From an uncultured Chloroflexota bacterium (GTDB taxonomy: Bacteria > Chloroflexota > Dehalococcoidia > Dehalococcoidales > RBG-16-60-22), in NCBI GenBank assembly GCA_903915565.1, contig CAIWTG010000221.1, positions 1 through 45,300 on the forward strand: a stretch of 45,300 bases of DNA, read 5' to 3'. The notes below the pieces were generated by a model. That model saw nothing but the letters and a program-made list of their open reading frames with translations, was not told where the DNA came from and searched no databases. How positions within the stretch are numbered: the first letter of the stretch is position 1; each line of letters starts with the position of its first letter. This document shows positions 2,355 through 29,408 of this stretch, piece by piece. The position numbers and the translations under genes are program-made.

Positions 2355-2657
2355 TTAGTTGCCGCTAGCCCGGTTTTTATTGAAACAATCGCTGCAGTAA
2401 ACCGGTCTGCCTTCACGGGGCTCAAAAGGAACTTCGGTGTCTTTGCCGCATCCAGCGCAAACAGCAGGGTACATCTGGCGGGGTCTCCCACCGCCTCCGC
2501 CACCCATACGTTCGGCTTTCCTGTTTTGCCGGCAAGTGGGGCAACGCTTGGGTTCATTGGTATAGCCCTTGGACTGGAAGAACTCCTGCTCGGCGGCAGT
2601 GAAGGTGAATGAAGCTCCACAATCGGCACATGTAAGTTGTTTATCTTCGAACGCCAC
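2355..2657 (-). CDS. Double zinc-ribbon protein (two CxxC...CxxC modules joined by a poly-Gly linker)
   Basis: 100 aa with a GTG start preceded by AGGAGG. Module 1 is CADC...CPTC, then GGGGGG, then module 2 CAGC...CSDC. Confidence 0.7.
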   Translation of the reverse strand: MAFEDKQLTCADCGASFTFTAAEQEFFQSKGYTNEPKRCPTCRQNRKAERMGGGGGGRPRQMYPAVCAGCGKDTEVPFEPREGRPVYCSDCFNKNRASGN

Positions 2658-2869: not shown

Positions 2870-2897
2870 TTGACTAATCCATTTTTTGCTATATACT
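2870..2897 (+). promoter_or_regulatory. Candidate promoter of the heliorhodopsin-DegV unit
   Basis: TTGACT (2870-2875), 16-nt spacer, TATACT (2892-2897). A strong AAGGAGG SD at 2927-2933 lies 6 nt before the ATG at 2940. Confidence 0.4.
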
Positions 2898-2939
2898 ATG
2901 AGGTTAAGGAGGGCAAAATAGTTAATAAGGAGGATTGAG

Positions 2940-3707
2940 ATGACTAGCGACCAACAAACCGAACGGAAATTGCACGTCCTTAGAGTCTGGAATATCGTGG
3001 TCGGTCTTATTCTCGCGGTCCAGGCTGTATTGATGGCGGTCCTTACCAACAAATTTTCCCTGCCGGTAACCGCTACGTTTATGGAAGGCCCACCCGGCAG
3101 TTCTTCGAACCTGCACCACCTCTGGGATATACAAACCGGCTGGGGGGTTTTTACCTTCATGGCGATATCGGCCCTAGCCTTACTGCTGATTGCTTCTCCC
3201 TGGGTCTTTCCGTGGTATAAGCGGAACTTGTTACAGAACCGCAACTACGGGCGCTGGATAGAGTATTTCTTTAGCTCTTCAATCATGATAGTGCTCATCG
3301 CTCAGATAACCGGCATCAGCGACATTGCCGCTTTGCTGGGCATCTTCGGCGTCAACGCCTGTATGATACTCTTTGGAGCCTTGCAGGAAAAATATGAGAA
3401 ACCGGGCAAGCCGAACTGGATGCCTTTCTGGTTCGGGAGCTTTGCCGGCATCATCCCCTGGCTAGCAATAGTGATTTACGTTATCGCTCCGGGTGTCAAT
3501 ACATCCCCGCCGGGATTCGTCTATGCCATCATCGTTTCACTTTTTGTCTTCTTCAACTGCTTTGCCGTTAACATGGTCTTGCAGTATAAGAAAATCGGCC
3601 CCTGGAAAGACTACCTTTACGGTGAAAAAGTATACATCATCTTGAGCTTGACGGCTAAATCACTGCTTGCCTGGCTAGTATTCGCCAACATACTGGTTTT
3701 AAAGTAA
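2940..3707 (+). CDS. Heliorhodopsin (7-TM retinal-binding protein with inverted topology)
   Basis: 255 aa with seven hydrophobic segments. Near-colinear match to my recollection of heliorhodopsin 48C12: LPVTATFMEGPPG, GRWIEYFFSSSIMIVLIAQITGISDIAALLGIFGVNACMILFGALQEKY, WFGSFAGIIPWLAIVIYVIAPG, PGFVYAIIVSLFVFFN, YIILSLTAKSLLAW. Schiff-base Lys240 (AAA 3657-3659) sits in TM7 within S-x3-K. The counterion is Glu108 in RWxEY. A basic N-terminus (TERKLHVLR) precedes TM1, consistent with N-in. Confidence 0.9.
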   Translation: MTSDQQTERKLHVLRVWNIVVGLILAVQAVLMAVLTNKFSLPVTATFMEGPPGSSSNLHHLWDIQTGWGVFTFMAISALALLLIASPWVFPWYKRNLLQNRNYGRWIEYFFSSSIMIVLIAQITGISDIAALLGIFGVNACMILFGALQEKYEKPGKPNWMPFWFGSFAGIIPWLAIVIYVIAPGVNTSPPGFVYAIIVSLFVFFNCFAVNMVLQYKKIGPWKDYLYGEKVYIILSLTAKSLLAWLVFANILVLK

Positions 3708-3732
3708 AAAAACGTTTATCCAAGAGGGGAAT

Positions 3733-4578
3733 ATGATGACCATTCAGGTGATAACCGACAGCACATCTGATATCTCGCCGGAAATCTCCAAAGAACTGGG
3801 CATCAGGGTGGTGCCGATATACGTGCGCTTCGGCGACCAGCTTTTCCGCGATGGCGTGGACATCCAGAGCGACGAGCTTTACCGGATGCTAACAGCCTCG
3901 ATGCGGTGGCACCCGGCCACCTCACAACCGACGCCGGATGACTTTAAAGCGGTATACAAGGAATACAGTAAAAAATGCGACGGAATTATCTCGATACATA
4001 TATCGTCAAAGATAAGCGGCACGTGTAATTCGGCGAATATGGCCAAAGACATGGTTGGCGGTAAATGCCCCATCGAAGTAATTGACTCGAAGTTCAATTC
4101 TGGCGGCTTGGCGCTAATCGTAATGCATGCCGCCAAATTGGCAAAGTCGGCTAAAAACATCGCCAAACTTGCCGACGACGTCCGCGAATGCATCAGTCAC
4201 GTGAGTATGTTCGGCTATTTCGACACGATGAAGTACCTCGCCCTCGGCGGGCGGCTGCCCAAGATGATAGCGGCGGCGGCTAATTTTATAAATGTTAAAC
4301 CCTTGCTGACCTTCCGCGATGGCGAAATTACCCGGGCTGGACTGGTGCGTAGCTTTACACGGGGCGCGGAGAAGCTTTTTGATTTTGTGAAGAGTAAACA
4401 AAATATCGCAGATATGGTCATCGTTCACAGCGATATTGCCGAGCAAGCGGAAAAATTCCGTCAGAGTCTGGGTGAATTCTTCCCGGCCAATAAGATAAAT
4501 ATCTTAAAACTCGGCGCCGGACTGGGCGTGCACGGCGGGCTGGGCGTATTGCTGGTGGCATTAAGAGAAAACGCATAA
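3733..4578 (+). CDS. DegV family fatty-acid-binding protein
   Basis: 281 aa. The typical DegV N-terminus is IQVITDSTSDISPEISKELGIRVVPIYVRFGDQLFRDGVDI. SD AGAGGGGA lies upstream. The gene starts 25 nt after the heliorhodopsin stop. Confidence 0.9.
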   Translation: MMTIQVITDSTSDISPEISKELGIRVVPIYVRFGDQLFRDGVDIQSDELYRMLTASMRWHPATSQPTPDDFKAVYKEYSKKCDGIISIHISSKISGTCNSANMAKDMVGGKCPIEVIDSKFNSGGLALIVMHAAKLAKSAKNIAKLADDVRECISHVSMFGYFDTMKYLALGGRLPKMIAAAANFINVKPLLTFRDGEITRAGLVRSFTRGAEKLFDFVKSKQNIADMVIVHSDIAEQAEKFRQSLGEFFPANKINILKLGAGLGVHGGLGVLLVALRENA

Positions 4579-4582
4579 ACGA

Positions 4583-5119
4583 CTAGGCATTGAATAAAGC
4601 CGGCCAGATGAACATATCCATGACCGCCGTCTGCAGGCTGAATGCCGCGGCGCCGCCGATCGCCAACCAGTAAGCGATGTCCGCTCCTCTGGGACTAGTG
4701 ACAATAATTGCCCAGAGCAGCGCCAGCGAACCGATGCCGACCAGAGCCAGCACTAAACGGACGCTAACCCAACCTATGGTAGTCGGGTTATTCAGATAGG
4801 CAAAGGTCAGCGGCATCCATAACGCGGACGAGATAAGTATTACCAGGAAAATCACGTAGTACAGCCAAAAGCCAAACCGTCCGACGATTTGGACCTGGTC
4901 GGGGTTGAGTTGGAAAAACAGCCAGTAGCTGAAGGCAAAGAAACCCAGTGCCGCCAACAGCATGGTGACATAGTTAAGAATGCGCAGTCCGCCGGTAACG
5001 CCGCCCCACAGCGTTGCCGCCCCGCCCGGGTGAGTGGCAAAACCCTGAATATAGCTGCCGATTACCGCGGCGCCGCCTACTGCCATGATAGCGAGCAATA
5101 TCCATTGTTGCGTATGCAT
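4583..5119 (-). CDS. Integral membrane protein of unknown function (about 5-6 TM)
   Basis: Hydrophobic ORF. The track starts it at a TTG (5140). I prefer the ATG at 5117-5119 (MHTQQW...), which lies 10 nt downstream of a GGGAGG SD (5130-5135). The ATG at 5128 is only 1 nt from the SD. Confidence 0.6.
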   Translation of the reverse strand: MHTQQWILLAIMAVGGAAVIGSYIQGFATHPGGAATLWGGVTGGLRILNYVTMLLAALGFFAFSYWLFFQLNPDQVQIVGRFGFWLYYVIFLVILISSALWMPLTFAYLNNPTTIGWVSVRLVLALVGIGSLALLWAIIVTSPRGADIAYWLAIGGAAAFSLQTAVMDMFIWPALFNA

Positions 5120-5229
5120 TTTACTCATACCTCCCGCCAAATTTGCCTGGTTGAAGTATAATTATAATAGCACCTAAATCAGTTAATATCTATGGCAATC
5201 ATCTCACTCTCCTAATAGATAAGTCGGTT

Positions 5230-5305: not shown

Positions 5306-5860
5306 ATGAACGTGCCCAAAGCGCTTGATGCCGCCAATACCGTCTTATTATTGATTGATTTTCAGGAGCGGCTTTTCCCCGTGATGCATGATAAAGAAAA
5401 ACTCCTGCAAAATGTTGTTAAACTCACTAAAGGCGCCAGGGTACTGGAGATACCAGTTATCCTGACCGAGCAATACCCCAAGGGTCTGGGGCCGACTATC
5501 CCGGAGATTAAAGAGCTTATCCCCGAGGTTAAACCAGTGGAAAAGGTCTGCTTTAGCTGCACGGACGAACCGGCATTCAACCAGGCGTTAAAATCGCTAA
5601 AGCGCAAACAGGTTCTCATCGCGGGCATAGAATCGCACATCTGCGTCTACCAGACGGCGATGGCGCTGGCACAGGAGGGTTACGAAGTACAGGTAGTCGC
5701 CGATGGCTGCGCTTCCCGCGACCCGGAAAATAAACTGGTGGCATTCACCAGATTCAGGCTGGCGGGCATTCCCCCCACCACCACCGAGATGGCGCTGTTC
5801 GAGTTACTTAAAGTGGCACAGGGTGACAAATTTAAGCAGATAAGCGGTATCGTAAAATAA
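5306..5860 (+). CDS. Isochorismatase-family cysteine hydrolase
   Basis: 184 aa. Motifs LLLIDFQ, LTEQYPKGLG and IAGIESHICVYQTA (catalytic Cys context). Confidence 0.85.
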   Translation: MNVPKALDAANTVLLLIDFQERLFPVMHDKEKLLQNVVKLTKGARVLEIPVILTEQYPKGLGPTIPEIKELIPEVKPVEKVCFSCTDEPAFNQALKSLKRKQVLIAGIESHICVYQTAMALAQEGYEVQVVADGCASRDPENKLVAFTRFRLAGIPPTTTEMALFELLKVAQGDKFKQISGIVK

Positions 5861-6939
5861 TGGTAACTCAAAATCCGTTTTCTAAATATATGAAACATAA
5901 AAAGAAAAGCACTATTGAGTTCCGGCGTGAGGTGCTGTCTTCAAAAATTATGACCCGCAATGGCTCCGGTATCTTTAAAGAGGCGGCCATACCCCTGGAG
6001 TTCCGCACCGACCCGTTGACCGGGCGCACCTGCCGCATCGTGCAGTACTCGACGGAAAGAATCACCCGCCCCAGTCTGACGGCATTGGAAAAGAAATCCA
6101 AAAAGGTCACCTGCCCTTTCTGCAAGCCGCAGATTGACAAGATTACGCCCCGCTTTCCGGCCGACCTTGTCCCGGATGGGATAATCCGCCGGGGCAAAGC
6201 CGTCGCCTTCCCGAACCTGGGCCCTTATGATGTTTACGGGGTGGTCGTGGCAATCTCCGACCGGCACTTTACCCCGCTCAAGGAGTTCGACGCCGAGACG
6301 ATTCAAAACGCCCTGCTGGCGGCGCAGGATTATATTAAAAGCGTCCAGGAATTCGACTCCCGGGCGATTTATCACTTCATCGCCTGGAACCACATGCCCC
6401 CTTCCGGCGGCAGCCTCATCCACCCGCACCTGCAGAGCAACGCCGGCTACTTCCCTACCGACTACCAGGCACAAATCCTCCAGGCTTCCGAAAGATACTA
6501 CCAGGAAAATCAGGCCAACTATTGGAGCGACCTGCTGCAGGCGGAGAAAGAGGGACCGCGGTACATCGGGCAGATAGGGCACACCGAGTGGATGACCAGC
6601 TTTGTGCCCAAGGGGCGGCTATCGGACGTGGTGGCGGTTTTCCCGGGTAAAGCTTCGATTGCCGAGCTAAGCAAACTGGATTTAGAAGAGTTCGCCCAGG
6701 GACTGCTCAAGGTCTTTGGTTATATTGACGGGCTAAACCTCATCAGCTTTAATATGAGCACTTATTCCGGCTTCGATAAAGACCGGTTTTGGGCGCACGC
6801 CCGCATCACCCCGCGGGGTATGCTTCTCTATTCGCCCATAGAAACCAGCGACCAGTTCTACTACCAGATAATGCAGGATGAGAATATCTGCATCCTCCCG
6901 CCCGAAACCGTCGCCCAAGAATTACGGAAGCGGTTTTAA
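5860..6939 (+). CDS. GalT-like HIT-superfamily nucleotidyltransferase/phosphorylase
   Basis: 359 aa. Zinc knuckle CPFC and active-site SGGSLIHPHLQ (HxHxQ). The start overlaps the upstream stop (TAATG). Confidence 0.7.
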   Translation: MVTQNPFSKYMKHKKKSTIEFRREVLSSKIMTRNGSGIFKEAAIPLEFRTDPLTGRTCRIVQYSTERITRPSLTALEKKSKKVTCPFCKPQIDKITPRFPADLVPDGIIRRGKAVAFPNLGPYDVYGVVVAISDRHFTPLKEFDAETIQNALLAAQDYIKSVQEFDSRAIYHFIAWNHMPPSGGSLIHPHLQSNAGYFPTDYQAQILQASERYYQENQANYWSDLLQAEKEGPRYIGQIGHTEWMTSFVPKGRLSDVVAVFPGKASIAELSKLDLEEFAQGLLKVFGYIDGLNLISFNMSTYSGFDKDRFWAHARITPRGMLLYSPIETSDQFYYQIMQDENICILPPETVAQELRKRF

Positions 6940-6960
6940 ATTGTTAGGATTAAATTAGTC

Positions 6961-7884
6961 ATGCTAAAAAAAATAGCGGTGATAATATGTACCTTGACGC
7001 TGGCAGCGATTTTACTATCCTCCTGCCTCCCGGCCCCGCATACTCCATTAACAGGCTTTAAGCCGGGAGATTATAACGAGTCGCTGGACTCCGGAAACCG
7101 GACGCGTACTTACACTGTCCATATTCCACTCACTTACAATACCGATCAGGCAATGCCTTTGGTCGTCGTTCTGCATGGGTCGGGCGGCTCCGCTGATAAT
7201 ATCGCCGAGACAACCGACATGAGCGATAAAGCCGACGCAGCCGGCTTCATCGTTGTTTACCCCAACGGCACAGGTTTGCTCAATGATACGCTTTATTTGA
7301 CATGGAACTGCGGTTTCTGCTGCGGCTATGCATCGGATAACAACATTGATGACGTGGGTTTTATGCGGTCGCTCATTGGAAAGCTGGAAGGGGAACTGAA
7401 TATAGATAAGGCGCGTATCTTTATTACCGGTTTTTCCAATGGCGCCATGTTGGCCTACCGGCTTGGCTGCGAGCTATCGGATATCGTCGCCGCCATTGCG
7501 CCGGTGTCCGGCTCGATGGGCGATTGGGAAACGGCTTCATCAAGCCCGGTGTCGGTTATCATCTTCCACGGTACGGCTGATGCCATCGTGCCATATGAGG
7601 GAGGTACATCAGACGAGCTTGCTACGGAGGGAAGGATAGATAAACCCGTGTCTTACGCCGTAAATTTCTGGGTGACTCATAACGGCTGCTCGACGGCATA
7701 TACCCGGGACGTAAACGGTGATATTGTAAGGGATAGTTATAGCGGCGGACGGGGCGGCTCGGAGGTAGTTCTTTATACCATCGTCGACGGTCAACACGCC
7801 TGGCCGGGCGACAACCCAGCCTACCGAGTAATATCCGCTACCGACCTTATCTGGGAATTCTTTGCCGCCCACCCCAAACTGTAG
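6961..7884 (+). CDS. Secreted lipoprotein esterase of the PHB-depolymerase / feruloyl-esterase (LpqC-like) family
   Basis: 307 aa. Signal peptide with lipobox LLSSC. VVVLHGSGGSA and the nucleophile elbow GFSNGAMLAYRL. Confidence 0.75.
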   Translation: MLKKIAVIICTLTLAAILLSSCLPAPHTPLTGFKPGDYNESLDSGNRTRTYTVHIPLTYNTDQAMPLVVVLHGSGGSADNIAETTDMSDKADAAGFIVVYPNGTGLLNDTLYLTWNCGFCCGYASDNNIDDVGFMRSLIGKLEGELNIDKARIFITGFSNGAMLAYRLGCELSDIVAAIAPVSGSMGDWETASSSPVSVIIFHGTADAIVPYEGGTSDELATEGRIDKPVSYAVNFWVTHNGCSTAYTRDVNGDIVRDSYSGGRGGSEVVLYTIVDGQHAWPGDNPAYRVISATDLIWEFFAAHPKL

Positions 7885-7898
7885 AAGGTCAGCAACAC

Positions 7899-8234
7899 AT
7901 GAAATCTGCAAAGCCCAAGGAAACAACCGCCATAGAGTGCCGGCGTTGCGGCGTCTGCTGCACCAGGCACCAGGCCTTCGTTACGCCAGAGGATGCCGAC
8001 AGAATAATCGCCTACGTGGGTATGACGCCGGCCGAGTGGGACGAAAAGTATGACGACCCGCGCTGGAAGTACTCGGAATGGCGTCTGATACGCCACATAA
8101 ACGGCGCCTGTGCCTTTCTAACGTTTAACGAGGGGTTAGCGACCTGCCGGATACACGCCGTCAAGCCTGCGTGCTGTGCCAAGTGGCAGGCCGGACTAGA
8201 CAAGACGGAGTGTAAAGAGGGGATGTTAACGTAA
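7899..8234 (+). CDS. YkgJ-family cysteine-cluster (Zn/Fe-binding) protein
   Basis: 111 aa with CRRCGVCC (CxxCxxCC) and further conserved Cys residues. Confidence 0.7.
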   Translation: MKSAKPKETTAIECRRCGVCCTRHQAFVTPEDADRIIAYVGMTPAEWDEKYDDPRWKYSEWRLIRHINGACAFLTFNEGLATCRIHAVKPACCAKWQAGLDKTECKEGMLT

Positions 8235-10226
8235 CGTAACCTTTCCCCTCACCCTTATATCCCTTGATGAACTCCCTACCAGTATTTCAAAGTCGCCGGG
8301 TTCTGCCACCCAATCCTTAGTCTTAACGTCGTAAAAAGACAGGGCGTCTTTGGTCAGCGTGAATTCAACCTTTTTCTTCTGTCCGGGTTTAAGGGCGACC
8401 TTGCTAAAGGCTTTCAGCTCTTTTGGCGGGCGCGGCACGCTGGCGGCAATATCGCTTACATAAACCTGCACCACCTCTTTGCCCGCCGCTTTACCCGTGT
8501 TCTTCACATCAACGCTCACATTAAACTTATCTTTCGTTTGCGCCGGGCTGACCTTAAGGTTGCTATATTCAAAGGTGGTGTAAGATAGCCCGTGCCCGAA
8601 GGAGAATAAAGGCTCAACGTTGTTAGCGTCGTAGTGGCGGTAGCCGACGAACATGCCCTCGCCATAGACAACCTTATCGTTCTCGCCGGGGTAATAGGGA
8701 AAGGCGGGGTTATCTTCATAACGGCGCGGGAAGGTATCGGGCAGCTTGCCGGAGGGATTCACCAGGCCAAAGATGATATTCGCTATAGCGTTGCCGCACT
8801 CCTGCCCGGGGAAAAGGGCATCCACCACAGCAGGGACGCTGTCAATCCAGGGCATATTCAATGGCGAACCATTGTTCATTATTACTACCGTTTTGGGATT
8901 GGCTTTAGCCACGCGGCTGACCAGTTCGTTCTGACCCGGCGGCAGGTTCATGTCCTTGCGGTCGACGCCTTCGGTCTCTATCTTCTCGTTGGTGCCCACA
9001 AAGACGAGAGCAACGTCGGCGCCGGCGGCGGCTTTAACCGCTTTCTCTAAAAGGTTAGCGGACGGCGCGTCGGCGCAGCCAGGTTCATATACTATTTGCA
9101 CTTTATCGCCACAGAATTTTTTCAGAGCCTCGAGCGGGGCGACCTTATAATAAGGCGTAACGTAGGCGCTGCCGCCTCCCTGAATGACGGCTGTTGCCGC
9201 GTTAGGGCCGATGACGGCGATGGTCTTTACTTTATTTTTGTCCAGCGACAGGAGGTTGTTATCATTTTTCAGCAGGACAATGGCTTCCTCGGCGACCTCG
9301 CGGGCAAGTTGGCCATGGGCGGGGAATTCCTTATTTTTATCGGCGTCGGTGATATTCTTATCCAGCGCGCCGGTTTTTATCATCACGCCTAAAACGCGGC
9401 GCACCTTATCGTCAATAATTTTTTCATCAACCGCGCCTTCTTTCACCGCTTTAACCAAAGCCTCGTTAAAAAAGCGTGCAGGCCCGGGCATCTCCAAATC
9501 CAGCCCGGCATTGGCGGCGGGGATTGTGCTATGGACGGCATACCAGTCGGACATGACCAGCCCCTCAAAGCCCCACTCATCTTTTAAAACCTCCATCAAA
9601 AGCCAGTGGTTCTCCGAGGCAAATGTGCCGTCAATCTTGTTATAAGAGCACATCACCGACCACGCTCCTGCTTCTTTAATGGCTTTTTCAAAAGACGGTA
9701 AGTAAATTTCCCGCCGGGTGCGCTCATCTACCTCCGAGCTGATGGTCATGCGCTGGTATTCGGAATCGTTGAGGGCGAAGTGCTTGACGCAGGCGCTCAC
9801 TTTTTGGCTCTGGATGCCTTTTATAATAGCCACGGTCATCTGTGACGACAGATACGGGTCTTCTGAATAGCTCTCAAAGTTCCTGCCGCCGAGGGGCGAA
9901 CGGTGGATGTTAATACAGGGGCCTAATAGGACGACGCAGCCCCGCGCCCGCGTCTCTTCCCCTAAAGCGACGCCGACCTTGTTAACCAGGTCGGGATTCC
10001 AGGTCGCCGCCAGACTAACCCCGGTGGGGAAACAGGTGGCGGGGATAGTGCGTTTGGGGTCGGCGTTATCCATCGTTCTGGCGCCATGAGGACCGTCGGT
10101 AACCTTAATCGCCGGTATGCCCAGCCGTTCGATGACGTGTGTATGCCAGAAATCAACGCCGGCTGTCAGAGCGACCTTTTCTTCCAGCGTCAATTGCTTC
10201 AGTAACGACTCAATTCTTTTATTCAT
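8226..10226 (-). CDS. Glycoside hydrolase family 3 beta-glucosidase
   Basis: 666 aa. GH3 motifs KHFALND and GLVMSDW (nucleophile Asp), plus a C-terminal FnIII-like domain. Confidence 0.9.
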   Translation of the reverse strand: MNKRIESLLKQLTLEEKVALTAGVDFWHTHVIERLGIPAIKVTDGPHGARTMDNADPKRTIPATCFPTGVSLAATWNPDLVNKVGVALGEETRARGCVVLLGPCINIHRSPLGGRNFESYSEDPYLSSQMTVAIIKGIQSQKVSACVKHFALNDSEYQRMTISSEVDERTRREIYLPSFEKAIKEAGAWSVMCSYNKIDGTFASENHWLLMEVLKDEWGFEGLVMSDWYAVHSTIPAANAGLDLEMPGPARFFNEALVKAVKEGAVDEKIIDDKVRRVLGVMIKTGALDKNITDADKNKEFPAHGQLAREVAEEAIVLLKNDNNLLSLDKNKVKTIAVIGPNAATAVIQGGGSAYVTPYYKVAPLEALKKFCGDKVQIVYEPGCADAPSANLLEKAVKAAAGADVALVFVGTNEKIETEGVDRKDMNLPPGQNELVSRVAKANPKTVVIMNNGSPLNMPWIDSVPAVVDALFPGQECGNAIANIIFGLVNPSGKLPDTFPRRYEDNPAFPYYPGENDKVVYGEGMFVGYRHYDANNVEPLFSFGHGLSYTTFEYSNLKVSPAQTKDKFNVSVDVKNTGKAAGKEVVQVYVSDIAASVPRPPKELKAFSKVALKPGQKKKVEFTLTKDALSFYDVKTKDWVAEPGDFEILVGSSSRDIRVRGKVTLR

Positions 10227-10243
10227 AATTAATTACTCTTATT

Positions 10244-11050
10244 TTATTCAGGCAGACTGTTCAGGAAGTCTAAAAGGGCTTTTTTATAGTCGGTATAGTT
10301 TTCTCGGCGGATGCTGTGACCGGCGCCTATGATTTGTACCCACTTGAAAGGCGCTTTAGACTTCCACAGTCTGGAGGCTTCTTCCGCCGTGGTTTTGGCA
10401 ACTAGCCCGTTTTCGGCAATAATCAGCAGGGTGGGGCACTTAATTTTCGGCACTTGCTCCTTATAGGAACCCGGGTTAACTACCATGAAGTCGAACAGTC
10501 TTTTATCATACTGCATTTTGGATTCCGCCCAGGGCTCTATTTCCGCTTCCGGCCAGAGAGGATTTGAATTCCGGCATTCCGCCATCAGTTCTTCCAGCGT
10601 CATCTTGCTTAACGAATCCATGTAGCTTTTAATATCGGCTTGGTTAGGCGGAGGCATCGTGTCCTGTTTCAGCCAGGCGGGGTCTTCCAGGATAATCGCC
10701 TTGGGGAGGTCGGGGTAGGCAACGGCTACATTCATCGTGGTGCCCGCGCCCATGGAATGCCCCATGATGATGGGCTTTGTTAAACCCAGTTGTCTTGCCA
10801 AAGCGGCAACCTGCTCGGTATGACTTTGAAAAGTAAATTTTTTATCCAGCTTGTCTGACTTGCCGTGCCCCTGCGCGTCCAGCATGATGACGTCGTACTT
10901 TTCCGCGAGCACCTCCGCTATCGGTGTCCAGCAAAGTCCGTTATCCGTGGCACCGTGGAGGAGAATAAGCGGCGGTTTTTTCCCGCCGGTGAGGTAGTCG
11001 TGGAGCGTGATTCCATTAATGGTTACATCGCCTTCTTTATATTGCAACAT
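10244..11050 (-). CDS. Alpha/beta-fold hydrolase
   Basis: 268 aa. Oxyanion LLHG, nucleophile elbow GHSMGAG, C-terminal GAGHS. Confidence 0.85.
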   Translation of the reverse strand: MLQYKEGDVTINGITLHDYLTGGKKPPLILLHGATDNGLCWTPIAEVLAEKYDVIMLDAQGHGKSDKLDKKFTFQSHTEQVAALARQLGLTKPIIMGHSMGAGTTMNVAVAYPDLPKAIILEDPAWLKQDTMPPPNQADIKSYMDSLSKMTLEELMAECRNSNPLWPEAEIEPWAESKMQYDKRLFDFMVVNPGSYKEQVPKIKCPTLLIIAENGLVAKTTAEEASRLWKSKAPFKWVQIIGAGHSIRRENYTDYKKALLDFLNSLPE

Positions 11051-11148
11051 AGTTGCTCCTTTCAGGGAGAATCAATAGATTGTATTACTCCCGGAGGTTT
11101 TTAGGCAAATAACAAAAAGTCCGGGTTAACATTTTATGATTATTTATA

Positions 11149-11250
11149 CCTTACCCCTGACCCCTCTCCAGCCTACGTGCCCACTAAACCAGACGTTTTC
11201 TGGCTGGAGAGAGGGGTTTAATTGAGAGGGGGATAAAGGGGGTGAGTTAT
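11149..11250. repeat. Intergenic imperfect palindromic (REP/MITE-like) element
   Basis: CCCCTCTCCAGCC (11161-11173) pairs with GGCTGGAGAGAGGGG (11202-11216). The outer CCTTACCCCTGA partly pairs with the downstream GGGGTGAG-rich tract. Confidence 0.5.
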
Positions 11251-11329
11251 GTATTAGACAAATATAAATATTACTGAAAAAGTGATACTATATAGCACAG
11301 AAACTATTTGTATATCAATGGAGGTGCAT

Positions 11330-11722
11330 ATGGCAGGTAAAACGATTAAACAGTCGGTAACGATTAAAGCCAAACCCCACGATGTCTATGAGGCGCTGAT
11401 GGACCCCAAAAAGCATGCCAAATTCACCGGCGGTAAAGCGGTTATCAGCCGGGAGGTGGGGGGCAAGTTCAACGTTTTCGACGGGTACGCGGAGGGAACT
11501 AACCTGGAGCTGGTGCCCGATAAGAAAATCGGCCAGTCCTGGCGCGCCGACGACTGGCTGAAGGGGCATTACTCCAAAGCCGCTTTCGAATTTAAAGAAG
11601 TTGCCGGCGGCACCGCCCTCACCTTTACCCAGACCGATGTACCGGCAGAGTTCGTTGACGACATCGCCCAGGGCTGGCAGGACTATTACTGGAAGCCCAT
11701 GAAAGAGATGCTGGAAAAATAG
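11330..11722 (+). CDS. SRPBCC/AHSA1-like ligand-binding domain protein
   Basis: The track ORF starts at 11282. I prefer the ATG at 11330 (MAGKTIKQSVTIKA...), preceded by GGAGGTG. The sequence pattern is typical of Aha1/START-fold proteins. Confidence 0.75.
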   Translation: MAGKTIKQSVTIKAKPHDVYEALMDPKKHAKFTGGKAVISREVGGKFNVFDGYAEGTNLELVPDKKIGQSWRADDWLKGHYSKAAFEFKEVAGGTALTFTQTDVPAEFVDDIAQGWQDYYWKPMKEMLEK

Positions 11723-11752
11723 TAAACGGACATACCTGGAAAGGAAATAAAC

Positions 11753-13846
11753 ATGGCGAAAATTAAGTTCGAGAAACTGCTCGAGCCGGGGTACATCGGC
11801 AAGGTCAAAACGCGGAACCGGATAGTGAAATCCGGCGCCGGGACGTTCATGTGGCACGAGGACGAAACGCGCATGAATAAAACCATCCTCGCCTATTATG
11901 AGAGTCTGGCGCGGGGCGGGGTGGGGTTATTGATAGTTGAAAGCCCGACCATTGACTATCCGGCCGGGGCGCGGTGGCGGCAGCGCTACCGCATTGACGA
12001 CGATAAATACATCAAAGGCTTGAGCGAGCTTCCTAAAATCATCCACAAATACGGCTGTCCCACCTTTATGCAAATGAACCACGATGGGCCGTGGGAGTCA
12101 CACCCGTTCCCCGACCCCAACCCTCCGTTCAATGGACCGCCGATAGCCGCCTCGTCCACGGTACTGAAAAACACCAATGATTTTCATAATGAGCTGCCGC
12201 ACGCGCTGACGATTTCCGAAATAGAGGTCATCATCGATAAATTCGCCAGCGCCGCCGTCAGGGCGAAAAAGGCCGGCTTTGACGGGGTGGACATCAACGC
12301 CGCCAGCAGCCATTTGCTGCATAACTTCCTCTCGCCTTTCTGGAACCACCGCAAGGACGCTTATGGCGGCAGCCCGGAAAACCGGGCGCGCTTTGTTACC
12401 AACATCATTAAAGAAATCAAAAAGCGATTGGGCCCGGACTTCCCTGTTTCCGTCTGCATCAACAGCATAGAAGTCGGGCAGACGGCGGACATCGCTGATG
12501 ATAGATGTATCACGGTGGAAGACGCGCGGCTGACGGCGCAGCTGTTAGAAGCCGCCGGCGCCGACATGATTCACGTGCGCAGCCACTGGCTGGGATACCA
12601 CGTGGGGGCTTATCTGCCTGACCTAATGTTTTATCCGAACTTCCCCGTCCCCGTAAAAGACATCCCCAAAGTTTACAACGCTCACCTGCGGGGTAAGGCG
12701 TGGAACGTTAACCTGGCGGCGGGGATTAAAGCAGCGGTAAAAATACCGGTGATGGTGGTGGGCAAACTCGACCCGGAACTGGGCGAAAAAGCCCTGGAAG
12801 AGGGCAAGGTGGACTTCATCGCCATGACGCGCCGCCTGCAGGCTGACCCGGAACTACCCAACAAAGTGGCGGCGGGGAGATTGGAAGATATTGCCCCCTG
12901 CACCGCCTGCGAGAACTGTCTGGGTTCGCGGCGTTGCCGTATTAATGCGTTCATGGGCAAGGAATACAACACGGTTGAAAAAGCGGCGAAAAAGAAAAAG
13001 GTCGCCGTTATTGGCGCCGGACCCGCCGGCATGGAAGCTGCTCGCGTGGCGGCTTTAAGGGGACACGACGTAACGCTTTACGACGGCAGCGGCAGCCTGG
13101 GGGGTCTTTTACCTCTGGCGGCCGTGGTCAAAGGCACGGAGCTGGAAGACTTGCCGGCGATAATTAAGTATTTTGAACGCCAACTAAAAAACCTCGGTGT
13201 TACGACGGAGCTGGGAAAAAAGGTAAATACCAAAACCATCGAAAGAACAAAACCGGACGCCGTCATTATCGCCACGGGCGGGATTCCTACGATGCCCAAT
13301 ATAAAAGGCATTGACGGGAAGAACGTAGTGGGCGGAGCTAAACTGCATAAGACCCTTAAGTTCTACCTGAAATTCATCCCGCCGAACCTTTTAAGGTGGC
13401 TGACCAAATTCTACCTCCCCATCGGTAAGCGGGTCGTTATCATCGGGGGGAGTTTGCACGGCTGCGAGCTGGGCGAATTTTTAGTCAGGCGTGGCCGGCA
13501 GGTAACCATCGTGGATAAATCAAAGCAATTGGGACAGGGCATGGTGGACGTTATTCAGGCCTACCTGTTCCAGTGGTTTAGTCACATGGGCGTGAGGCTC
13601 ATCAGCGGGATTGAGGACTATATTGAAATAACGCCGGATGGGCTGTTAATAAGAAATGAAAAGGGCGTTGCAGAAATGCTCCCCGCCGATACGATACTCC
13701 CCACCCTGCCGTTGACGCCGGATATGAAACTTTATGAGAGCCTCAAGGGCAAGGTTAAAGAAATCTACGCCATCGGCGACTGTAAAGAACCGCAACTTAT
13801 CGCCGACGCCGTCAGCCAGGGCATGGAAACCGCCCGCTCAATCTAA
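11753..13846 (+). CDS. Two-domain FMN/FAD oxidoreductase of the enoate reductase / 2,4-dienoyl-CoA reductase type (OYE barrel + Fe-S + FAD/NAD(P) domain)
   Basis: 697 aa. N-terminal OYE-like barrel, Cys cluster CTACENCLGSRRC, then dinucleotide folds VAVIGAGPAGMEAA and VVIIGGSLHGCELG. Confidence 0.85.
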   Translation: MAKIKFEKLLEPGYIGKVKTRNRIVKSGAGTFMWHEDETRMNKTILAYYESLARGGVGLLIVESPTIDYPAGARWRQRYRIDDDKYIKGLSELPKIIHKYGCPTFMQMNHDGPWESHPFPDPNPPFNGPPIAASSTVLKNTNDFHNELPHALTISEIEVIIDKFASAAVRAKKAGFDGVDINAASSHLLHNFLSPFWNHRKDAYGGSPENRARFVTNIIKEIKKRLGPDFPVSVCINSIEVGQTADIADDRCITVEDARLTAQLLEAAGADMIHVRSHWLGYHVGAYLPDLMFYPNFPVPVKDIPKVYNAHLRGKAWNVNLAAGIKAAVKIPVMVVGKLDPELGEKALEEGKVDFIAMTRRLQADPELPNKVAAGRLEDIAPCTACENCLGSRRCRINAFMGKEYNTVEKAAKKKKVAVIGAGPAGMEAARVAALRGHDVTLYDGSGSLGGLLPLAAVVKGTELEDLPAIIKYFERQLKNLGVTTELGKKVNTKTIERTKPDAVIIATGGIPTMPNIKGIDGKNVVGGAKLHKTLKFYLKFIPPNLLRWLTKFYLPIGKRVVIIGGSLHGCELGEFLVRRGRQVTIVDKSKQLGQGMVDVIQAYLFQWFSHMGVRLISGIEDYIEITPDGLLIRNEKGVAEMLPADTILPTLPLTPDMKLYESLKGKVKEIYAIGDCKEPQLIADAVSQGMETARSI

Positions 13847-15282: not shown

Positions 15283-16743
15283 ATGTCTGTTGCCAAACTT
15301 AAGTTAGCCGCTTTATTTGCCCTGCTTCTCTTCATAGCGGCAATTGCTATCCCCACCCCCGCTTTTGCCGACGGCGGGCCGATTGTCCCTGCCGACCTCT
15401 GGGATAACCTTAAAGAGGGGCACCAAATAGCCGTGGTTTCTTTAATAAGTCAGGACGAGGCGGTGGTCGACCTTTTCATTTCTATCCAGGACAAAACAAC
15501 GGAGTCCCACGAAGTCATCTTTTTCGTGCCTATAGGTAAAGACGCAACCTTCCACAGCGCTTATGAGCAGAACCTGTCCGACTTCAATGAATTCAATACC
15601 GCGGGGCTGGACCAGATAATCCGAGCCAGTGTAACCACCCGGCAGCATGCCGTCCAGGCGCTTTTCGCCGGGGCGTTACTGACTAACGGTGCGATATTAT
15701 CCCCACTCTGGGCCACGGTGCTGCTTACCGGATGCAGCTCTGGTGCCCAACAGCCGGAGGCCTCTTTCCAGACTGAAAGCTCCGAGATTAATATATTTGG
15801 TATTGATGATAACACGGATTTGAATGCGCTTATCGAGACTACCGGGCTGGCTCCCTCCGTTTATGATACGCTGTCCACACTCAAAGGGCAGCGGGTAGCC
15901 GTCGTCAAGCTGCATACCCAGCCTAAAGTACCTGAATCTGAAAACCCGGTATTCCAAAGCACTCCCACCTCCGAACCCGGGCTGCACCTCAACTGGACCA
16001 CTCCTCTCGTGGATAGTGCGTATACTTATCCCCTGGGAACCGGCGCCGCCTGGTCCAAACCTATCGATCTGACGCGGGTTTATATCAGCGTGCCTAAGGG
16101 CGTCGACTTTGATGTCCAATACCCCGCCCTCGGGACGGAGTATTCCGGCTACGACTATATCAAAGGTCCGAATATCCAAAACTACATCAATACCCCCGCT
16201 TACGCCATTGACGAGGCCAGCGGTGACTTCGGGCGGGTCTGGCGGGCGACATATACGATGAGCAATCCCACCGATAACATCGTCATTACGGTTAAACCGC
16301 AGTCGGCGTTAAGCCAATTCCTCGCCAGCGCCAAGGAGGGTGCGGTAACTTACTCCGTGCTCTTCGCCCTGATTATCGGGGTGTTAATATGGGTTCTCGC
16401 CTGGAAATACCTGATGCCCATTTTCCTCGGCATTAAAGAGAAGCATCCCATGTTAGCCTGGTATTATGCGTTGATTTATCCCGGTTGTAACTTAATCTTT
16501 ATCATCTTCCCGGGAATGGTGTTTTATTTGTTCTTCCTGTTTAATGCGACCCTCATATCATTTATTCTGCTTTTCGTGGTGCTGGGAGGGGCGATAATCG
16601 GTATATTTTCTTTGGCACACGGCGGCCGTCTGGGCGTCAGCCGGGGCAAAGCGATAGGCGCTTTTGTGCTAACTAGTCTTTGCAGCAACGCGGTTTACCT
16701 GCTACTGGCGGCTGGCTTTGCCTGGTTCGTGGGCGCTATCTAG
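15283..16743 (+). CDS. Secreted, membrane-anchored protein of unknown function
   Basis: 486 aa. N-terminal signal peptide (...PTPAFA/DGG), a soluble region of about 330 aa, then about 4-5 C-terminal TM helices. It is the last gene of the plus-strand operon. Confidence 0.65.
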   Translation: MSVAKLKLAALFALLLFIAAIAIPTPAFADGGPIVPADLWDNLKEGHQIAVVSLISQDEAVVDLFISIQDKTTESHEVIFFVPIGKDATFHSAYEQNLSDFNEFNTAGLDQIIRASVTTRQHAVQALFAGALLTNGAILSPLWATVLLTGCSSGAQQPEASFQTESSEINIFGIDDNTDLNALIETTGLAPSVYDTLSTLKGQRVAVVKLHTQPKVPESENPVFQSTPTSEPGLHLNWTTPLVDSAYTYPLGTGAAWSKPIDLTRVYISVPKGVDFDVQYPALGTEYSGYDYIKGPNIQNYINTPAYAIDEASGDFGRVWRATYTMSNPTDNIVITVKPQSALSQFLASAKEGAVTYSVLFALIIGVLIWVLAWKYLMPIFLGIKEKHPMLAWYYALIYPGCNLIFIIFPGMVFYLFFLFNATLISFILLFVVLGGAIIGIFSLAHGGRLGVSRGKAIGAFVLTSLCSNAVYLLLAAGFAWFVGAI

Positions 16744-16795: not shown

Positions 16796-18298
16796 CTAGT
16801 AATTGGGGGTGCTGTTCCCGCTAACACCCGGAGGATTACCACCAGGGAAATATCCGGGGTTATAGTTACCGCTGCCACCGGGTGGGTTTCCGCCGGGATA
16901 ATACCCGGGAGTATTATTGCCGCTAGCGCCGGGAGGTCTAACGCCGTTACCGCCAGGCAAATTGTAACCTCCATCAGACGGCATATCACCACCCCTCCCG
17001 TCAAACCCTCCCCTCCCCGCTCCTCCACCGGTAAGCCAACTGGGTAAGAAATTAAGGTTCAAGACCGACTGCATGTAAAGTAGTGAACCAAACCCTACCA
17101 GAACTGTCGTAATCGGTATCCATATCTTCATCGGTAATCGTGAAAGCACCAGAGCGCTAATTACCGCGACGGGGAATAACCCGGGCAGATAAAAGCGACT
17201 GAAAGTTACCCAGGCGCCGGCACCCTGGAAATCCGCCGTCCATTCGTAAGTCAGATACAAACCAAAGACAAAGACAAACCAACCAATCAGTATCCACAGA
17301 ATATTCCATGGTATCTCCGTGTGCAGACTCGACCACCTTCCCATCGCCTCCCCTCGCTTTTTAATAGCCCTGAATTTGAAGTAAAGGATAGAGATGAAGG
17401 CCGGTATCCCTACCGCCAGGAGAGGGAAAGCCAGCATTAACGCCCGGGGTGCGTTTTGCAGGTTGCCCCAGATTATTTCCCAGGGGACAGATTGCCCGCT
17501 CTGGTTAATCTGCCCGAGGTATTGGAAGGCGAACTTTATCCCGAACTTGGTATAGTGATAGCCATAGTCCAACGCCGAGCCAAAAACAAAATAGTCATAA
17601 AGCAACAAAGCCGCCACCGCCAAACCTATGCCCATAACCACCGGGATTATTTCCCGCCGAATCCTCGCCCGGTCTTTCTTATACCACTGGATAATGCGGG
17701 TAATGATAAAATGCAAAGCAATAACAAAAGCAATGGGGAAGTTGGTATAACGCGAGACAACCGACCACCCAGTTAAGAAGAAAGCCAGGAAAAGTATTAC
17801 ACCGCCCTTTACCTTGCCGAATTTCTCTTTTCCCAGATGGTAGTACATATAAAGGCCGCCGCCCATCACCAGGAAAGCCAGCGACGCATAGGTATCCATG
17901 TAGGCGCGGTTAAGCATCACCAGGCTAAGCGGCGTTAACAGCATCAACAAAGAGCCTATCATCGCCGCCTTTTCGTCTCTCATACGCTTTAGCAGGATAT
18001 AAGTCACAATAATCATACCCAGTGCCAGCAAGACATTGCCCCACCGCGGTATACCCGCTAATTCGAAAGGAATCAGATAAAGGACATAACCCGGCGCTTT
18101 TTCCAGCGCCCAGATATTATCGCCGATGTTGACGTATTGTATCAGTTGCCCGCCTTGCTGCTGGGCTTCACTCACCTGCTGTGAATGAGTGGCACTATCT
18201 ACCGTAAATTGCTCTTGAGCAAAGTTTTGTACTCCATAATAATACGCCCAATCGTCCGGGTCGGCCATATTGACGGGAACCGCCAGCGCTAAAACCAT
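16796..18298 (-). CDS. GT-C-fold membrane glycosyltransferase-like protein (ArnT/PMT family 39-like) with a G/P/N/Y-rich C-terminal tail
   Basis: 500 aa with about 11-12 TM segments. There is an acidic DPDDWAYYY loop near the N-terminus, as in the first-loop Asp motif of GT-C enzymes. The tail is GGNGVRPPGASGNNTPGYYPGGNPPGGSGNYNPGYFPGGNPPGVSGNSTPNY. The 5' end is uncertain (see findings). Confidence 0.55.
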   Translation of the reverse strand: MVLALAVPVNMADPDDWAYYYGVQNFAQEQFTVDSATHSQQVSEAQQQGGQLIQYVNIGDNIWALEKAPGYVLYLIPFELAGIPRWGNVLLALGMIIVTYILLKRMRDEKAAMIGSLLMLLTPLSLVMLNRAYMDTYASLAFLVMGGGLYMYYHLGKEKFGKVKGGVILFLAFFLTGWSVVSRYTNFPIAFVIALHFIITRIIQWYKKDRARIRREIIPVVMGIGLAVAALLLYDYFVFGSALDYGYHYTKFGIKFAFQYLGQINQSGQSVPWEIIWGNLQNAPRALMLAFPLLAVGIPAFISILYFKFRAIKKRGEAMGRWSSLHTEIPWNILWILIGWFVFVFGLYLTYEWTADFQGAGAWVTFSRFYLPGLFPVAVISALVLSRLPMKIWIPITTVLVGFGSLLYMQSVLNLNFLPSWLTGGGAGRGGFDGRGGDMPSDGGYNLPGGNGVRPPGASGNNTPGYYPGGNPPGGSGNYNPGYFPGGNPPGVSGNSTPNY

Positions 18299-20619: not shown

Positions 20620-21483
20620 CTATTTGTTTGGCTGAATGGCTGCGGCGGCCCGCTTGCGGTGGTCTTCCAGGTAGCGCCGGGCGAACCTATCGCGCCCCAG
20701 AACCAGGTCGGCGGAAAGGACGGCGGGCATGACCTTGGCGGCGTCGGCAATCAGGGCGGTACCGCCGGCGTCAATGACCATCGCTATCCAGGCGTTATTC
20801 AATATCGGCCGGTCCGGCATACCGAAGGAGATGTTGCTGGCGCCCATCGTCATGTTCAGCCCAATCTCGATGCGTATCTGGCGCAAGGCAGCCAGAACGT
20901 CCATGGCGGCTTTTGGCTCGGCGCCGATGGCATAGGCCATCACGTCGATAATGATGTTCTCCTTGGGAACGCCCATTTTGGCGCAAGCCTCAACGATTTT
21001 GTAAGTGATAGCCACGCGGCGTTCGGTGGTCTTGGGAATGCCGTCATCGTCCTGGGCGAGGCCGATAACCGCGGCGCCGTACTCTTTAATTAACGGCAGG
21101 ACGCGCTCCAGCTTGGCTTTTTCGCCGCTGATTGAATTAACCAGCGGTTTGCCCTTGTAAACCTTCAGTCCGGCTTCCAGGGCGGCGGAATTGGGACTGT
21201 CAATGCAGAGCGGTACATCAACCGCGTCCTGGATGACTTTAATCGCCTCGGGGAGGAGTTTTACATCATCCACGCCGGGGGCGTTAACGTTGCAGTCCAG
21301 GATGGTGGCGCCGGCGGCAACCTGCTCCAGGGCTTCTTTCTTGACGATGGAAAGGTCACCGTTCTTAAGCGCTTCCGCCAGCTTTTTCTTGCCGGTGGGG
21401 TTAATGCGCTCGCCGATAATTGTTGTCGGCCGGTCATAAGAGATGATGACTTCTTTAGAGATACCTGATACTTTTGTGTCCAT
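20620..21483 (-). CDS. Pterin-binding methyltetrahydrofolate:corrinoid methyltransferase (MeTr/AcsE/MT2-like)
   Basis: 287 aa. Motifs IGERINPTG, LDCNVN, LCIDS, VNSISG and GASNISFGMPDRPILNNA, typical of the pterin-binding TIM barrel. Confidence 0.85.
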   Translation of the reverse strand: MDTKVSGISKEVIISYDRPTTIIGERINPTGKKKLAEALKNGDLSIVKKEALEQVAAGATILDCNVNAPGVDDVKLLPEAIKVIQDAVDVPLCIDSPNSAALEAGLKVYKGKPLVNSISGEKAKLERVLPLIKEYGAAVIGLAQDDDGIPKTTERRVAITYKIVEACAKMGVPKENIIIDVMAYAIGAEPKAAMDVLAALRQIRIEIGLNMTMGASNISFGMPDRPILNNAWIAMVIDAGGTALIADAAKVMPAVLSADLVLGRDRFARRYLEDHRKRAAAAIQPNK

Positions 21484-21587
21484 AATTTATTACTCCTGTT
21501 TTTATTTATAGGCTAAATACACACTCTATTATGCCCTAAATGCAAAATTCCTGCATCCGCTAAAATACTGAATGAGTTTACGGTTCA

Positions 21588-21626
21588 CAGCTATCAGTTT
21601 TGGGGAGGGGGGAGTACTGATAACTG
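21588..21626 (-). other. Intercistronic hairpin between MT1 paralog 5 and MT2
   Basis: CAGCTATCAGT (21588-21598) pairs with ACTGATAACTG (21616-21626). 11 bp with one mismatch and a G-rich (plus-strand) loop. Confidence 0.4.
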
Positions 21627-21649
21627 TTTACTGTATACTGAAAACTCAA

Positions 21650-22990: not shown

Positions 22991-23006
22991 TTTGAGCCTC
23001 CGCTAA

Positions 23007-24341: not shown

Positions 24342-24379
24342 TTTGGTTATGCCTCCGTAACTAATTCCTTAAGTGTTTC

Positions 24380-24475
24380 GTCATTGCGAGGAGCGAAGCG
24401 ACGCGGCAATCCCAATCTACGTTTACTCCAATGCTTGAGATTGCCACGCCCTACTGCGGAAGGGCTCGCAATGAC
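24380..24475. repeat. REP/MITE-like palindromic element in the paralog 3 / paralog 4 spacer
   Basis: The terminal inverted repeats GTCATTGCGAG (24380-24390) and CTCGCAATGAC (24465-24475) are exact complements. The inner arms GGCAATC / GATTGCC also pair. Confidence 0.6.
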
Positions 24476-24481
24476 ACCTCG

Positions 24482-25828: not shown

Positions 25829-25890
25829 GATTGATTACCCTCCTTTTGTTATTCCAAGGTCGGGTGTTGGGGTGACATTATCAATTTCAT

Positions 25891-25908
25891 TAGCCAAATG
25901 CTTGGCTA
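25891..25908 (-). other. Small hairpin directly after the paralog 2 stop
   Basis: TAGCCAA (25891-25897) / TTGGCTA (25902-25908) with a 4-nt loop. Confidence 0.35.
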
Positions 25909-25911
25909 TAT

Positions 25912-27237: not shown

Positions 27238-27269
27238 CCTGAACCTCCAAAAAAGCTATTTCTAACCGA

Positions 27270-27311
27270 CAGGCATTTCCTCACCACCATGGAATGGCGC
27301 GGAAATGCCTG
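27270..27311 (-). other. Intercistronic hairpin between MT1 paralogs 1 and 2
   Basis: Perfect 11-bp stem CAGGCATTTCC (27270-27280) / GGAAATGCCTG (27301-27311) with a 20-nt loop. No U-tract is adjacent on the minus strand. Confidence 0.45.
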
Positions 27312-27349
27312 ATGCCGGTTAAAACGCTTATATTATTTTATCTAAAGCT

Positions 27350-28684: not shown

Positions 28685-28685
28685 A

Positions 28686-29321: not shown

Positions 29322-29408
29322 ACCTTCATCCTCCTTAGTATTTTTTTGGTATCCCTGAAATTGAAACAATCCGACCGGTTATTTTCCGAATTCAAATCGT
29401 TCATGGCG

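Follow-up and report, generated by a model that had tools for sequence, protein, structure and literature searches.

A heliorhodopsin (HeR) gene and a gene for a DegV/FakB-type fatty-acid-binding protein are neighbors on contig CAIWTG010000221.1, from an uncultured Chloroflexota bacterium of the order Dehalococcoidales, of which we analyzed positions 1 to 45,300 (hereafter, the window). The HeR gene (2940..3707, + strand) encodes 255 aa and is followed by the DegV gene (3733..4578, + strand), with 281 aa as called and a probable start at 3736 that would give a protein of 280 aa. Convergent with DegV lies gene X (4583..5140, − strand), whose product is a membrane protein with five long helices and a probable start at 5119 (178 aa). 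An original prediction, drawn from the DNA letters, had proposed that HeR and DegV form a bicistronic unit and had read the third gene as its downstream boundary.

The identity of the HeR is well defined. It matches Pfam family PF18761 (E=1.3e-97; whole-protein score 326.3 bits against a curated cut-off of 26.7) and passes the NCBIfam HeR equivalog NF038020 at 321.8 bits (cut-off 100). Residues were mapped on its best PDB relative, the 48C12 HeR (E=1.9e-72): K240 is the Schiff-base retinal lysine and E108 the counterion (K241 and E107 in 48C12), while the conserved His pair near the Schiff base, H23 and H80 of 48C12, is not kept and is represented by L25 and L81. The HeR of the Dehalococcoidia fosmid clone HULAa30F3 carries the corresponding H25L/H81L substitutions, absorbs at 562 nm, forms little M intermediate, and has a DegV gene adjacent to it (Chazan et al., bioRxiv 10.1101/2021.02.16.431466). 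Since HULAa30F3 is functional, the L25/L81 change as aligned is the mark of a subtype (LL, as opposed to the His-His or HH type) and not a loss of HeR membership. In a residue table covering 90 loci, every sampled HeR at least 65% identical to that of the window is of the LL type, and more distant HeRs are nearly all HH. The nearest HeR proteins, 81 to 93% identical, come from Dehalococcoidia and Dehalococcoidales metagenome-assembled genomes.

Upstream of HeR, a consensus scan found the single promoter-like element that had been predicted, TTGACT-16-TATACT at 2870..2897 on the + strand (10 of 12 matches), which we regard as a candidate. A TTGACT box with a −10-like hexamer 16 to 17 nt downstream is present in five of six syntenic relatives and recurs in L001, L003, L008, and L094 (retrieved loci are designated by L numbers); the sequence around it is poorly conserved among these relatives. 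The Shine-Dalgarno (SD) site of HeR read from the sequence, AAGGAGGA (2927..2934, + strand), stands 6 nt ahead of the ATG, and its core GGAGG or GAGG is retained in all six aligned relatives.

The DegV protein belongs to Pfam family PF02645 (E=1.3e-70; 238.3 bits against a cut-off of 27) and passes TIGR00762 (266.8 bits; cut-off 99.7). It is matched by 25 DegV/FakB sequences of the PDB, the best being Thermus DegV 2dt8 (E=1.8e-36); Staphylococcus aureus FakB2, 4x9x, matches at E=2.7e-29. In FakB1, Thr62, Ser95, and His270 hold the fatty-acid carboxylate by hydrogen bonds, and Arg173 is needed for kinase catalysis (PMC8892158); residue roles were taken from this FakB1 paper, not from FakB2. The whole set is kept in the window DegV as T63, S95, and H267 for the carboxylate network and R174 for the catalytic Arg, and these positions are conserved in 13 to 14 of 14 HeR- or X-linked DegV proteins. 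R206 aligns with an Arg at chain position 222 of 4x9x and, judged from the numbering offset, would correspond to FakB1 Arg205, which serves FakA and membrane binding. The window DegV is not a FakB1 orthologue, as it fails the equivalog NF038249 (120.9 bits; cut-off 350). Its residue set fits a fatty-acid carrier that would hand its cargo to a kinase and suits a retinal carrier poorly.

HeR and DegV are separated by a 25-nt spacer, AAAAACGTTTATCCAAGAGGGGAAT (3708..3732, + strand), with a purine-rich SD, AGAGGGG, at 3723-3729. The second ATG (3736) is where DegV homologues start and is therefore the probable real start, which gives a spacer of 28 nt and an SD spacing of 6 nt. No terminator-like site was found between the two genes in the consensus scan, and folding yielded no hairpin with a T-run at the junction. 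The same architecture was seen in seven loci, the window and six others: HeR-DegV spacers of 12 to 65 nt, each with a purine-rich SD and none with a T-run terminator. Same-strand order, short spacer, SD, lack of a terminator hairpin, and a convergent downstream gene (stops of DegV and X 4 nt apart) had all been described correctly in the original prediction. Together with the occurrence of this arrangement in unrelated flanks and with two HeR subtypes, they favor its bicistronic reading, and HeR and DegV are very probably co-transcribed.

Gene X has no name in current family collections. No Pfam family matched the window protein even at E≤10, and no NCBIfam family matched either. Its AlphaFold2 model is confident (pLDDT 91.4, pTM 0.88) and shows five long helices; no significant fold match was found in the PDB (best E=0.8, TM <0.5). 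A single-sequence search of 5.8 billion proteins returned 378 clusters and a profile search 1,915 clusters. The matches listed are proteins of ~177 to 179 aa, domainless and unnamed, mostly from Dehalococcoidales and Chloroflexota, and no Pfam domain or name occurs among the 120 best of the 1,915 profile clusters. The only recurring weak Pfam match in the family, DUF6768, was obtained for 12 of 39 members (best E=7e-4), not including the window protein, and was treated as uninformative. Upstream of X, the region 5141..5228 (− strand) contains a weak candidate promoter at 5192..5164 (− strand; 9 of 12 matches, with a TG ahead of the −10).

The pairing of HeR with DegV has been published, and the window is a new instance of a known neighborhood. 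Chazan et al. analyzed the neighbors of thousands of prokaryotic HeRs and found that DegV and DUF2177 most distinguish HeR neighborhoods, mainly in Firmicutes and Chloroflexi, with DegV the strongest; light-dependent remodeling of membrane lipids was hypothesized (bioRxiv 10.1101/2021.02.16.431466). Later papers repeat this lipid idea for DegV and HeR and note that the pairing is not universal. The light-dependent control of lipid handling offered in the original prediction is the same hypothesis, with a published precedent and hence not new, its mechanism being conjectural; the original prediction also knew of no established mechanism for such a link, and while the link itself was already in print, no mechanism has been established. 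By description, the window resembles HULAa30F3 in having a Dehalococcoidia HeR with both His residues changed to Leu and an adjacent DegV gene, and resembles the pairs of Chazan et al. in that DegV is next to HeR on the same strand at a short distance, which in the window is 25 nt with no terminator between.

What is new is X, the unnamed membrane-protein gene that travels with HeR and DegV and that a neighbor analysis based on Pfam would miss. The published trio of DUF2177, DegV, and DUF1295 likewise places a small membrane protein of unknown function and DegV beside HeR. However, DUF2177 and DUF1295 do not occur in the window (phmmer found no DUF2177 homologue in any window open reading frame [ORF], and Pfam scans of the main ORFs gave neither family), and the X family is not mentioned by Chazan et al. 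We considered whether X is a form of DUF2177 (PF09945) and ruled this out: hmmscan gave no DUF2177 match at E≤10 for X and 38 homologues, and the hhalign probability of the X profile against a bona fide DUF2177 protein was 0.6%. X has five long helices in 178 aa, compared with ~125 aa for DUF2177, and the two occur as separate genes of one locus, in L019 together with DegV and HeR and in L107 with DegV, where DegV and DUF2177 diverge from X.

Relatives were collected through HeR alone, as four close homologues on long contigs and the best 80 of at least 597 GTDB species-representative HeR loci; the query of the GTDB survey was a 12-sequence HeR alignment, and the sample does not include Firmicutes or archaeal HeRs, among which Chazan et al. 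also saw DegV. These loci were then searched with DegV and X profiles, and iterated hidden Markov model searches across the retrieved loci found no additional members of either family. Syntenic relatives share a zf_Tbcl gene on the opposite strand, HeR, and then an isochorismatase gene downstream, and the order HeR-DegV-X is present among them in L005 and L008. Of the 18 species representatives in the close clade, two (L010 and L020) have the three genes in one direction in flanks unrelated to those of the window. In L019, HeR is followed by a convergent string of X, SDR, SOUL, DegV, and BD-FAE esterase genes, with the DUF2177 gene just upstream of HeR; this stretch (7537-12745) is the richest version of the neighborhood. 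In L023, DegV is convergent and farther from HeR, and in L009, X and SOUL follow HeR in the same direction without DegV.

Set against the genomic background, as the original prediction had proposed, the adjacency stands out: in 5 of 23 close-clade loci, the gene immediately 3' of HeR and in the same direction is DegV. With the window, L005, and L008 treated as a single event on account of their synteny, three independent events remain, for which the binomial probability is ~4e-6, assuming 2 DegV genes per 1500 genes. Judged by gene order, the pairing is not a matter of chance. The full trio of HeR, DegV, and X was found in at least six unrelated flank contexts, those of the window type, L010, L019, L020, L113, and L116. 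The original prediction had also staked itself on conservation of the adjacency in related genomes, and here the picture is divided, as the closest relatives are without DegV but the pairing recurs in other relatives. Because the closest relatives lack DegV, the HeR-DegV link is, on the genomes compared, a facultative one.

DegV and X are both missing from these closest syntenic relatives, L001 (HeR 93% identical) and L003 (86%); blastn boundaries and junction sequences place ~64 bp where the window has 3708-5228, a segment that ends with the region upstream of X. Directly 3' of the HeR stop, where the window has its DegV spacer, both carry a GC-rich inverted repeat (e.g., GGATTGGGGAATTCCCCAATCC; about 6800-6825 in L003 and about 10800-10825 in L001), which could be the terminator of a monocistronic HeR. 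Relative to L001 (~88% nucleotide identity), the window has three gene-sized presence/absence differences, at 1460-2289, 3708-5228, and 6939-7931, which correspond to a Y_phosphatase3 gene, the DegV-X cassette, and an esterase gene, respectively. L003 lacks DegV-X at a junction similar to that of L001 even though its HeR is less similar than that of L001, which suggests that the cassette has been exchanged by recombination. The GC profile gave no sign of a foreign origin of the cassette.

X follows the same pattern of gain and loss, being present or absent together with DegV throughout the syntenic set. A metagenome scan with X yielded 17 confirmed loci, many of them incomplete, and in all, X homologues were located in L005, L008-L010, L019, L020, and L089-L117. 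X adjoins a HeR-DegV pair in L094, L096, L111, L113, and L116, and adjoins DegV in L090, L092, and L098, where no HeR is within reach. Thus the convergent gene, taken in the original prediction as a mere boundary, is better seen as part of the module: it co-varies with DegV, recurs beside HeR-DegV, and by these comparisons behaves as the third component.

The three genes have not simply descended together. L094 and L096 occupy the syntenic slot of the window (zf_Tbcl, SpeE, AdoMetDC, isochorismatase), and their DegV (65% identical) and X (70 to 73%) are ordinary orthologues, while at HeR they carry an HH-type protein that shares just 43% identity with that of the window, a difference that points to replacement of the photoreceptor in place. 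Both subtypes therefore precede DegV and X: LL in the window and HH, 43 to 44% identical, in L094 (7420-8193), L096 (4951-5730), and L116 (3344-4117). X also falls into two subtypes, a convergent one (window, L008, L094, L096, L090, and L092) and a co-directional one (L005, L010, L020, L113, L116, L098, and L099), and all four combinations of HeR subtype with X subtype were found. HeR distances are uncorrelated with those of DegV or X (Mantel r=−0.18 and −0.02), and DegV and X distances are weakly correlated (r=0.33, p=0.015). Because all four combinations occur and HeR distances do not track those of DegV or X, the trio is, as far as protein distances tell, reassembled and not merely inherited, its parts repeatedly exchanged and the combination kept. 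This reshuffling argues for selection acting on the trio.

In other loci, X neighbors further proteins that handle hydrophobic ligands or lipids. In L089, a complete genome labeled Deltaproteobacteria, X lies near genes for a CHI-like Chalcone_3 protein, a CMAS-type methyltransferase, a PlsC-type acyltransferase, an SRPBCC protein, and a lipocalin. A SOUL gene is near X in L009 and L019, and in L098, X is beside an LprG-like lipoprotein and an MFS transporter. Genes for oxidative-stress proteins (catalase, MsrA/B, AhpC, DsbD, and CMD) are frequent near X or HeR. Staygreen genes (Mg-dechelatase family) directly follow X in two unrelated contexts, L098 (4352-4870) and L114 (5602-6063), one of which also has MsrB and MsrA.

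Two characterized systems offer models for parts of the trio. Like FakB1 and FakB2 of S. aureus and FakB1-3 of Streptococcus pneumoniae, the window DegV has by sequence the DegV fold, the Thr-Ser-His network, and the catalytic Arg. Unlike in the FakA/FakB system, however, the window has no FakA gene, its DegV is only ~29% identical to FakB2, and the partners of DegV are a rhodopsin and a membrane protein and not fak, pls, or FASII genes. HeRs have also been reported to regulate the products of operon partners, glutamine synthetase (Cho et al. 2022) and class 2 CPD photolyase (Shim et al. 2022). In these reported operons, as in the window, HeR is encoded with a soluble protein, and they may serve as a model for HeR acting on DegV; the putative partner in the window is a lipid-binding protein, whereas theirs are enzymes that act in nitrogen or DNA metabolism.

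That some functional link exists among HeR, DegV, and X is well supported by these comparisons; that the proteins touch, what X does, and which physiological purpose is served we infer. With moderate confidence, we propose that the three genes form a facultative module by which the handling of membrane fatty acids is linked to light. The LL-type HeR would be the photosensor, presumably with the HeR traits of inverted membrane topology, retinal binding, and a slow photocycle that has a long-lived photointermediate and no ion pumping. DegV would dock on the membrane and extract or deposit a free fatty acid, as FakB proteins do, and a FakA kinase, encoded elsewhere, would phosphorylate the carboxylate that DegV presents. 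On the membrane side, X would be the partner with which soluble carriers of hydrophobic ligands work. Through direct contact with DegV, and perhaps with X, by analogy with what has been reported for glutamine synthetase and photolyase, HeR could make fatty-acid exchange or activation light-dependent, so that membrane acyl chains might be adjusted or repaired under illumination, when photo-oxidative damage is likely. A more specific version is possible, and we put it forward tentatively: X may be a membrane-embedded partner of DegV, SOUL, CHI-like, SRPBCC, and LprG-like carriers in general, and in Dehalococcoidia the HeR-DegV-X trio may be a light-regulated mover of fatty acids between membrane and cytosol.

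Several observations weigh against this proposal. Besides the absence of DegV and X from L001 and L003, DegV lies within 8 kb of HeR in only 4 of 18 close-clade GTDB species representatives, and neither DegV nor X was found within 8 kb of HeR in any of 62 loci from Actinomycetota and other Chloroflexota; Geodermatophilaceae HeRs, too, are not beside DegV. Neither FakA/Dak2 nor PlsX/PlsY nor a retinal-synthesis gene is present within the 45-kb window. The window X, being convergent, cannot be on the HeR-DegV transcript, and the loci retrieved with X as the query are a sample skewed towards its presence. Finally, the searchable literature yielded no experimental test of the HeR-DegV link (transcript, binding, or ligand) and no work on HeR and fatty acids from 2022 on.

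One rival is co-regulation alone. HeR, DegV, and X may take part in a single response to light or photo-oxidative stress and have a promoter or neighborhood in common for the sake of timing, with no contact between the proteins; DegV and X would then be a self-contained lipid-homeostasis pair, and HeR would signal elsewhere. DegV-X pairs without HeR in L090, L092, and L098, the closest relatives with HeR and without DegV-X, and the oxidative-stress genes around X and HeR, in line with the stress genes that Chazan et al. reported near HeRs (bioRxiv 10.1101/2021.02.16.431466), all agree with this. It explains less readily why DegV is coupled so tightly, at 12 to 65 nt directly 3' of HeR, or why the trio has been repeatedly reassembled with differing HeR and X subtypes, and direct binding of HeR to the products of operon neighbors has a reported precedent; we consider co-regulation alone unlikely, yet deserving of serious attention. 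It has also been suggested that HeR itself acts on lipids, as a light-dependent lipid-modifying enzyme or a fatty-acid gate, with DegV removing or supplying the substrate or product via the lateral fenestration, which is the form phrased by Chazan et al. (bioRxiv 10.1101/2021.02.16.431466). DegV proteins do extract fatty acids (PMC8892158), and HeR crystal structures, as cited by Chazan et al., hold lipid or monoolein in the fenestration, beside the retinal ring. Nevertheless, HeR has no known catalytic residues, the LL subtype has lost two polar His residues near the Schiff base, and no enzymatic activity is reported in the literature found, all of which makes an enzyme or gate improbable.

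The original prediction had raised a different role for DegV, delivery of retinal or a carotenoid. The cargo that DegV brings to HeR, or takes from it, would then be the chromophore itself or a related isoprenoid, be it retinal, retinoic acid, or a carotenoid. The long hydrophobic tunnel of DegV could accommodate such a ligand, and there would be a need for its transport, as the window has no retinal-synthesis gene and the chromophore must be acquired somehow. But T63, S95, R174, and H267, the full carboxylate-binding and kinase-related set, are kept, while retinal has no carboxylate, and DegV proteins of this orthogroup also pair with X at loci that have no HeR close by; delivery of a chromophore now appears quite improbable. 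Last, the DegV-X cassette might be a neutral hitchhiker in a recombination-prone spot after HeR with no functional tie to it. The clean presence or absence of 3708-5228 between close relatives and the other gene-sized insertions and deletions in the same region are as expected from hitchhiking, which is nonetheless already disfavored by the recurrence of the trio, seen with both HeR subtypes and in at least six contexts unrelated to one another, by the binomial probability of ~4e-6, by a published DegV enrichment that spans several phyla (bioRxiv 10.1101/2021.02.16.431466), and by the lack of a GC anomaly in the cassette. We regard it as very unlikely.

The biological role of HeR has been in question since 2018, and DegV is the best-supported genomic lead. 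The window locus adds nothing new to the pairing itself, but it sharpens this lead in three ways: the pairing outlasts a swap to a 43%-identical HeR subtype and to a second X subtype; DegV, as far as its sequence tells, retains every residue for fatty-acid binding and for hand-off to a kinase; and an unnamed membrane protein, X, is gained and lost together with DegV. HeR, DegV, and X thus make up a compact three-protein system suited to a binding or lipid-transfer experiment, and HULAa30F3, a near relative of the window HeR subtype, has already been expressed and spectroscopically characterized. If the trio does move fatty acids under light, HeR would acquire a concrete output, one that could be reconstituted with three small proteins and followed as a measurable flux of lipid.

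The zf_Tbcl gene that diverges from HeR (2355..2657, a small zinc-ribbon protein) has a leader, 2658-2800 on the − strand, that is conserved more than coding DNA. Within the leader lie a promoter (TTGCCA-17-TATAAT) and an invariant element of 46 nt (GGAUGACC...AAGGAGGUCAUCC) with an 8-bp stem that occludes part of the SD. Six relatives, one of them with a 43%-identical HeR, have the identical element, which offers no covariation by which to judge the stem. Rfam gave no match in the HeR-DegV region or in this conserved leader.

Elsewhere in the window, three large ORFs have no Pfam family, at 15283-16743 (+ strand, 486 aa), 16796-18298 (− strand, 500 aa), and 5860-6939 (+ strand, 359 aa), the last of which relatives also keep beside their isochorismatase gene. 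The window further encodes CoA-transferases and subunits of pyruvate:ferredoxin oxidoreductase, which, like the corrinoid-dependent methyltransferase cluster described next, are in keeping with the Dehalococcoidia origin of the nearest HeRs. The region 20620-29369 (− strand) contains a pterin-binding methyltransferase, five tandem URO-D-like (MtaA/MtbA-type) paralogues of 441 to 448 aa, and a B12-binding corrinoid protein, and by its gene content has the look of a cluster for methyl transfer or O-demethylation that has grown by duplication.

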